Source: a virus (lineage: Duplodnaviria; Heunggongvirae; Uroviricota; Caudoviricetes). Taken from it: a DNA stretch of 4,368 nt. The first letter of the stretch is position 1. Every line of letters starts with the position of its first letter. Under the pieces are notes generated by a model that had not been told where the DNA came from, made no database searches, and saw nothing but the letters and a program-made list of their open reading frames with translations. The DNA is taken from IMG/VR virus record IMGVR_UViG_2671180915_000012, one strand, 5' to 3'. Below are positions 3,449 through 4,368 of the stretch, piece by piece. Made by a program: the position numbers and the translations under genes.

Positions 3449-4368
3449 TTACGCCAGTACGCCTATTGCCAGCGCACGATCGATAAAACGAAATATCAGC
3501 TCCAGCTGGGAGCCATACTTCTCTTCAAATGCCACGGTATCCGCATGCAGCTCGTCGTGATGCTTTCTGCACAAAGGCAACACAAAAAGGTCATGCGCTT
3601 TTGTACCCATTCCCCCCTGACCGTGGCCTATCAGGTGGTGGGGATCATCAGCAGGTTTTCCACAACATGCGCACGGCTGCGTCTTAACCCAGCGCGTGTA
3701 CTTTTCATTAACCCAGCGGTGACGTTTTGGGCGTAACATAAAAGACTCCGGCGACTCCGGATCCACTTTCAGCGCCAGCACCTTTTTCGCCTTATCCTGG
3801 ATGATGCTGGTGGCAGGAACCGAAGGCACAAGGTCACTTTCCCGGGTAACAGACGGCACAACAGGCTTCGGTAATCTCAGTGCCTTACGGGCTGCACTTT
3901 CCGGTAAGGCATCCGCCAGATCATTACGAATCAGCCACCAGCACAGTTCCGGCATTGTCACAACATGACTGTCATCAAAACCGAGATCCCGACGCACAAC
4001 AGACAACACCCAGCGGGCACAGTTATCCGTTGCCATTGATTCCAGCCGTTCCGTGAACTGATCGCGCAGCTGGTTATCGCAGTGCCAGCACAGACGGATT
4101 GCGCCCGGAGCGTGTCGCATTGTTGTCATGTTCTCGCTGTGCCAGTCGGAATGAGGCCACTGGCAGCCTTTTTCACGAAGTAACCAGCTTTCAAGACATT
4201 CCACGCCACCAGCACGACGGATCACTGCCTCATTGCGGAACACGGCCCGAACGGCAGGATCATCCGCCAGTGAACCGCCCCGGAAATCCTGGAGACTAAA
4301 CTCCCTGAGAAAGAGGTAAACAGGATGACTAAAAATACTCGTTTTTCCCCCGAAGTCCGTCAGCGGGC
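3449..4368 (-). CDS. ydfU: DUF968-family prophage protein (YdfU-like) with a C-terminal HNH-like zinc-binding motif; N-terminus lies beyond the right window edge
   Basis: Frame is open from the right edge (4366) to TAA 3451-3449; the track's GTG at 4243 is only the first in-window start. C-terminal CACCGKPADDPHHLIGHGQGG...LCRKHHDELH (about 3545-3673) resembles an HNH nuclease core. Only 13 nt separate it from quuQ, suggesting an operon. Confidence 0.8.
   Translation of the reverse strand, partial: PLTDFGGKTSIFSHPVYLFLREFSLQDFRGGSLADDPAVRAVFRNEAVIRRAGGVECLESWLLREKGCQWPHSDWHSENMTTMRHAPGAIRLCWHCDNQLRDQFTERLESMATDNCARWVLSVVRRDLGFDDSHVVTMPELCWWLIRNDLADALPESAARKALRLPKPVVPSVTRESDLVPSVPATSIIQDKAKKVLALKVDPESPESFMLRPKRHRWVNEKYTRWVKTQPCACCGKPADDPHHLIGHGQGGMGTKAHDLFVLPLCRKHHDELHADTVAFEEKYGSQLELIFRFIDRALAIGVLA

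Follow-up and report, generated by a model that had tools for sequence, protein, structure and literature searches.

Introduction

Two phage nucleases, Ref of phage P1 and Gp16 of the staphylococcal phage PhiNM1, are the closest characterised relatives of the protein considered here, the product of a DUF968 (YdfU-type) gene in a 4,368-nucleotide stretch of DNA from IMG/VR virus record IMGVR_UViG_2671180915_000012, which in its full length we refer to as the window. Ref, an HNH nickase, depends on RecA and cleaves DNA only where RecA is bound to it, as in D-loops (PMC3973344, PMC4330346). Gp16, shown in 2026 to be a RecA-stimulated nickase in vitro (PMC12817073), binds double-stranded DNA and nicks, then degrades, plasmid DNA; it is expressed early in infection, promotes phage DNA replication and inhibits the host (PMC12817073).

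A connection between DUF968 and HNH nucleases has been described before. Curtis et al. (2014) reported that DUF968 proteins bear a C-terminal zinc-finger HNH motif (PMC4118853), and Jablonska et al. (2017) placed DUF968 together with DUF1364 in group 7 of the His-Me finger proteins, naming YdfU of the Qin prophage and YbcO (PDB 3G27), noting RusA, Q and antirepressor neighbours, and proposing a nuclease of recombination or repair (PMC5714182). Phage records in RefSeq and GenBank also call the DUF968 protein "HNH endonuclease" (NC_049941 gp24; phage HannyBb). A first-pass annotation of the window had called DUF968 proteins uncharacterised, which is partly true of their biochemistry, but the HNH link had been published (PMC4118853, PMC5714182) and Gp16, which passes the DUF968 threshold, has been characterised. 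Given this literature, the cross-matches in Pfam, the PHROGs and the RefSeq records, we treat the link between DUF968 and HNH as already known. What we present here is a residue-level map for the YdfU-type subfamily. We think it likely that this lambdoid-prophage YdfU/DUF968 protein has a zinc-stabilised HNH nuclease domain and that its intact copies are nickases; the copy in the window is a remnant.

Results

An HNH domain at the C-terminus of the DUF968 protein

The DUF968 gene of the window lies on the minus strand at 3449–4270 and comprises codons 57–329 and the stop codon, as defined by the open reading frame, its translation, the Pfam matches and 100% identity to WP_001519432.1, an intact allele of 329 residues. 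Residues are numbered below as in that intact protein, full-length numbers being those of the window protein plus 65. The first-pass annotation had assigned the protein to DUF968, placed its gene directly upstream of Q in a nin-like region, and described an HNH-like motif at 3545–3673, and each of these claims is borne out. Pfam DUF968 (PF06147) matches with 272.8 bits (E 1.6e-81, model positions 2–171 of 171), above the gathering score; the Q gene, recognised by its Pfam Antiterm match (PF03589, E 1.5e-53), lies 13 nucleotides downstream; and minus-strand translation of 3545–3673 gives 43 residues, CACCGKPADDPHHLIGHGQGGMGTKAHDLFVLPLCRKHHDELH, exactly as quoted, with every Cys and His codon position checked. 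The motif, CACCG...DPHH...HD...LCRKHHDELH, which rests on translation, codon check, conservation and a residue match to Gp16, is part of a 94-residue C-terminal domain (residues 236–329; 3452–3733, minus strand) of the HNH (beta-beta-alpha-metal, His-Me finger) type.

That this C-terminal domain is an HNH domain is supported by four independent lines of evidence. A relationship to HNH families in profile searches, posed beforehand as a test, was found with HNHc_6, with PHROG 96 and, by hhalign, with Gp16. Pfam HNHc_6 (PF16784; cut-off 26.6 bits) matches the whole protein with 27.3 bits and the C-terminal domain alone with 30.2 bits, PHROG 96 ('HNH endonuclease') matches with an E-value of 5.7e-147, and the HNH PHROGs 131, 22514 and 7370 match as well; an NCBIfam search gave no family for the protein. 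With a domain alignment of 35 sequences as the query, hhalign gave a probability of 95.6% (E 1.2e-8) for Gp16 of PhiNM1, 77% for YbcO and 69% for P1 Ref, and the same Cys and His columns align in all three comparisons.

The domain also has the beta-hairpin followed by an alpha-helix (the metal finger) by which members of the HNH/His-Me finger superfamily are recognised: H268 ends the strand 265–268, and both H294 and H298 lie inside the helix 291–299. When the fold of the domain is compared, its best match is P1 Ref, and the best structural and profile relatives overall are Ref, YbcO and Gp16 rather than the HNH proteins of packaging systems. Membership of the Ref family itself (RecA_dep_nuc, PF16786) was rejected despite this fold match, as the domain alone scores 18.5 bits against a cut-off of 26.9. 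Searches of the PDB by sequence gave less. A single-sequence search returned C2H2 zinc fingers at E-values of 0.4–5, which we rejected as compositional matches of Cys and His, and YbcO at an E-value of about 1; the full-length profile had no match in the PDB, and the domain profile matched YbcO (E 0.13) and IscB (E 2.3). Because the PDB searches by sequence and the Foldseek search with the model of the whole protein are weak, the structural comparison at the level of the domain is the decisive evidence. Lambda NinG/Rap (PF05766) was considered as a homologue by position and function, and membership of that family was rejected: there is no Pfam NinG match, BLASTP gives an E-value of 0.49, and hhalign aligns 13 columns round the CxxC with a probability of 4.8%.

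The predicted metal sites and their conservation

In colicin E9 the HNH residues follow the pattern HH-x14-N-x8-H-x3-H, and the HH-x14-D-x10-H-x3-H of the DUF968 domain is close to that spacing. Comparison of sequence and fold places C256 (codon at 3671–3673), C259 (3662–3664), C290 (3569–3571) and H293 in a structural zinc site of the CCCH type, by which hairpin and helix are held together. H268 ends strand 1, in the position of the general-base histidine, and H267, D283 (3590–3592), H294 and H298 (3545–3547) complete a colicin-like metal/phosphate centre; the H267–H268 pair is encoded at 3635–3640 and the H293–H294 pair at 3557–3562, all of these codons being on the minus strand. In the numbering of the window protein the same residues are, from the N-terminal side, C191, C194, H202–H203, D218, C225, H228–H229 and H233.

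Gp16 has a homologous HNH domain, and each of the two proteins passes the Pfam threshold of the other's family (DUF968 or HNHc_6). C145, C148, C181 and H184 of Gp16 are equivalent to C256, C259, C290 and H293 of the DUF968 protein, and H157, H185 and H189 to H268, H294 and H298, although in Gp16 the dyad is without its first His. The Gp16 mutant C181A (C290 here) has no nuclease activity in vitro, and mutations of the zinc ligands equivalent to C259, C290 and H293 abolish both growth inhibition and nucleoid condensation (PMC12817073). The roles that the first-pass annotation had given to the CxxC and CxxH as a zinc site, to the HH dyad, to the loop and to the distal His agree with this mutagenesis (PMC12817073).

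Among 45 full-length homologues with 25–85% identity, C256, D283 and P288 are invariant, and H267, H268, H294 and H298 are each at least 90% conserved. We also examined 82 diverged representatives, obtained as 50%-identity clusters spanning the domain. The HH-D-H-H set is whole in 73 of them, which argues that catalysis matters in most lineages, this one included. The four presumed zinc ligands take the form CCCH in 36 representatives and CCCC in 22 (58 together), and most of the remaining lineages have lost at least two zinc ligands and kept the histidines. As judged from these alignments, such a pattern of ligand loss is what is usually seen where a structural zinc site can be dispensed with and the catalytic centre next to it cannot, and the motif is under purifying selection and is not a chance pattern. 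The representative of a common E. coli allele (P0005, with 1892 member sequences) has H267N and H272Y; H268 is kept, and natural variation therefore exists at the first position of the dyad.

The same residues could be read differently, as a module that is mainly a zinc finger for binding DNA or protein, with nuclease activity secondary or absent, for instance in an accessory factor coupled to the late-gene activator. PdcB of phage P1 (locus L006, 4001–5044) is homologous over its full length (344 aligned columns with 26% identity, E 5e-41; Pfam DUF968 match at E 3.6e-50). Its gene lies directly upstream of that of the late activator Lpa, parallel to the position before Q, and the protein keeps four Cys but has H268, H294 and H298 replaced by Y, Q and E. 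About 10% of the representatives lack HHDHH, the position beside Q or Lpa is fixed, and in Gp16 mutations of the zinc ligands abolish the phenotype whereas those of histidines only partly weaken it (PMC12817073). However, if catalysis played no part it would be hard to see why so large a share of diverged lineages, this one among them, retains HHDHH; lineages without the zinc Cys still carry the histidines, Gp16 cuts DNA in vitro (PMC12817073), and no direct link is seen between the protein and transcription. We consider the binding module an unlikely alternative to a catalytic HNH domain. A related idea comes from the fixed slot upstream of a late activator (Q, or Lpa in P1), which holds even for PdcB and makes a function linked to the early-to-late switch conceivable; that YdfU-type proteins have an undescribed function of this kind, partly independent of catalysis, and are more than an HNH domain joined to some known partner domain, seems to us improbable.

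The N-terminal domain and comparison with relatives

Upstream of the nuclease domain the remnant retains residues 57–195 of a YdfU-type N-terminal domain (3854–4270, minus strand), with a conserved C92 and a C117-W-H-(C/H)-D-N motif. The two domains are joined by a linker of variable length and lower model confidence at residues 196–235 (3734–3853, minus strand), recognised from the predicted local distance difference test (pLDDT) and from indels in the family alignment; around it (residues 191–240) the mean pLDDT is 68–86 per 10-residue block, and the alignment has many indels in this region.

Gp16 has an N-terminal NinB/Orf-like domain, whereas that of the YdfU type has no similarity to lambda Orf; an Orf/NinB-like domain, as found in Gram-positive DUF968/HNHc_6 proteins, was looked for and not detected, so the protein is not an Orf–HNH fusion. 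The two also differ in host, which is Gram-positive for Gp16 and Gram-negative for the YdfU type, although both are encoded by early phage genes with RusA close by. P1 Ref (PDB 3PLW) lacks the GTKAHD loop segment, and instead of a folded domain of about 195 residues it has a basic unstructured N-terminal tail (PMC4330346). YbcO of DLP12 (PDB 3G27; YbcO/DUF1364) is a single domain of 96 residues and, as aligned, lacks the first CxxC pair and the HH dyad. An internal duplication, in which the N-terminal module would correspond to the C-terminal HNH domain, was also considered; the hhalign alignment of the two is collinear, with a probability of 1.3–1.7% and an E-value of 0.03–0.04, and the duplication is not supported and is kept as a lead only. 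The N-terminal domain may be a degenerate second beta-beta-alpha module, without support from hhalign.

Interruption of the gene by an insertion sequence

A complete gene of this type encodes about 329–349 residues including the N-terminal domain, and the window copy does not. Identity to the intact 329-residue alleles (WP_001519432.1, 100%) ends at position 4270, and codons 1–56 are missing. The segment that follows, 4271–4368, is the left end (plus strand) of an IS1203/IS629-type element of the IS3 family of insertion sequences (IS), with the inverted repeat TGAACCGCCCC... and the ATG of orfA near 4324; it matches, with 100% identity, the IS1203 end in NZ_CP077442 and an IS3 element in NZ_CP027587. 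This truncation had been overlooked in the first-pass annotation.

The same IS junction is present in assembly GCA_003015285.1, where the IS stands between the remnant and yfdP. Compared with the intact prophage in NZ_CP027587 (locus L001, 12271–18950), about 6.7 kb have been lost in GCA_003015285.1, including the genes for a KilA-N protein, RusA, a LexA-like protein and a Dam methylase as well as replication and immunity functions. None of 5,426 complete E. coli genomes has the exact junction, which an exact-protein look-up finds in draft assemblies. As the retained portion is 100% identical to the intact allele, the IS event is recent. With the native start and promoter lost, the remnant is most likely non-functional; the window copy is 5'-truncated and its expression as a normal protein is improbable.

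In the Qin prophage of E. coli K-12 the equivalent gene is intact. YdfU (b1560, NP_416078, PF06147) belongs to the same family, with 60% identity overall and a near-identical C-terminal domain, but it has 349 residues and, in the pairwise alignment, a longer inter-domain linker, whereas the window copy belongs to the 329-residue allele group and is cut by the IS after codon 56.

Prophage locus and gene context

The window comes from a defective lambdoid prophage of E. coli that resembles Qin. Positions 1–4270 are 100% identical to several complete E. coli chromosomes, and over its entire length the window is 100% identical to one contig of GCA_003015285.1. The stop codon of the DUF968 gene is at 3449–3451 (minus strand), and after the 13-nucleotide gap the Q antiterminator gene, of the ydfT/quuQ type, begins (2683–3435, minus strand; PHROG 127, E 2.3e-108; annotated ydfT in RefSeq). 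So short a gap is compatible with co-transcription or translational coupling. The Q protein has 250 residues, with two Antiterm (PF03589) stretches and sub-threshold matches to DnaJ-type CXXCXGXG zinc fingers.

Beyond Q the order is cspF (plus strand), cspB (minus), ynfU (plus), the class II holin gene essQ (minus) and ydfR (minus), and the K-12 Qin locus resembles it, with ydfU, ydfT (Q), cspF, cspB, ynfU, essQ and ydfR. The divergent cold-shock genes cspB and cspF sit between Q and the lysis genes, and the Rfam cspA thermoregulator (RF01766) is found at 1469–1908 on the minus strand (156.7 bits, E 4.9e-42), where it covers the cspB 5' leader and part of the cspB coding sequence.

In K-12 Qin, in a Stx2a phage and in phage HannyBb the DUF968 gene is the last nin-region gene before Q, and RusA is close to it in the prophage of NZ_CP027587 and in the Stx2a phage. 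In Vibrio phage Cla a homologue with 34% identity closes the early genes; genes for a lysozyme and an endopeptidase follow a few genes downstream, and Q is not annotated in that phage. The syntenic slot is conserved in lambdoid phages of Escherichia, Shigella and Salmonella and in P1-like elements. Several GenBank phage records (KF030445, LR597642 and OR565852) label the DUF968 open reading frame, or one overlapping it, 'antitermination protein Q', and one assembly has a fused DUF968–Q frame (protein P0068, 393 residues); these labels and the fusion are probably artefacts of annotation or frameshift, explained by how closely the two genes adjoin.

This position bears on the roles that the first-pass annotation had suggested, namely DNA processing, packaging or inter-phage conflict. 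For packaging, the protein would be a terminase-associated HNH endonuclease, like HK97 gp74 or those of staphylococcal cos phages, that aids the large terminase in cutting concatemers. Rather than being adjacent to terminase, as in the HK97 gp74 type, the gene always follows the early/nin genes and precedes first Q and then the lysis cassette, which separates it from the packaging genes, and none of its closest structural and profile relatives is an HNH protein of the packaging type. In addition, PhiNM1 without gp16 still forms plaques (PMC12817073) and P1 pdcB is non-essential (PMC10695390, PMC10067587), though PdcB lacks the catalytic residues. Both the gene position and the fact that gp16 and pdcB mutants are viable speak against a packaging role, which we regard as very unlikely. 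It is highly improbable as well that the nuclease is a selfish one or one used in conflict, be it a homing endonuclease that stands alone or a weapon against phage or host in competition between phages: the syntenic slot is conserved, unlike the sporadic insertions of homing genes, no sequence-specific DNA-binding module like those of homing enzymes can be recognised in the protein, and the PADLOC defence models give no family at E <= 0.01. Among the suggested roles packaging is the least supported; intact copies would most probably serve as nickases of recombination or replication.

Discussion

On the reading that we prefer, an HNH nuclease domain in a YdfU-type protein, intact 329-residue copies are predicted, by analogy with their characterised relatives, to be metal-dependent DNA nickases of low sequence specificity. 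They would be delayed-early products, encoded by the last nin-region gene ahead of Q, and their predicted substrates are recombination or replication intermediates, or host DNA. The position before Q and the nearby RusA fit a role in recombination or replication, and Jablonska et al. arrived at this hypothesis for the group as well (PMC5714182). RecA may stimulate or target them, as it does the closest relatives, P1 Ref and PhiNM1 Gp16, and the N-terminal domain specific to the YdfU type presumably supplies binding to DNA or to a partner. The phage would replicate or recombine better with an intact copy but would not depend on it.

Several points weigh against this proposal. A Foldseek search with the full-length model gave no significant match, the Pfam match to HNHc_6 is marginal (whole protein 27.3 bits, cut-off 26.6), and searches of the PDB by sequence are weak, with YbcO at E-values of 0.13–1. 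The N-terminal domain is neither Orf/NinB-like, as in Gp16, nor a basic tail, as in Ref, so that RecA coupling is not transferable by homology. A minority of homologues, P1 PdcB among them, have lost the catalytic His with the zinc Cys and the gene position kept, which makes a role without catalysis possible. Finally, the Gp16 mutation H157A (equivalent to H268) left toxicity unrelieved (PMC12817073), and the roles of individual residues are therefore not fully settled in that protein.

With the link between DUF968 and HNH already on record, the finding is of small value as a discovery, and the gene in the window is a decayed remnant. The YdfU-type subfamily to which it belongs is carried by Stx2-converting phages, by the serotype-converting Shigella phages SfII and SfIV, by Salmonella ST64B and by many phages of Klebsiella and Vibrio, and for these P1 Ref and PhiNM1 Gp16 provide experimental models, especially for RecA-stimulated nicking. 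If intact copies act as Gp16 and Ref do, they may influence prophage induction, recombination and sensitivity to DNA damage in pathogenic E. coli.
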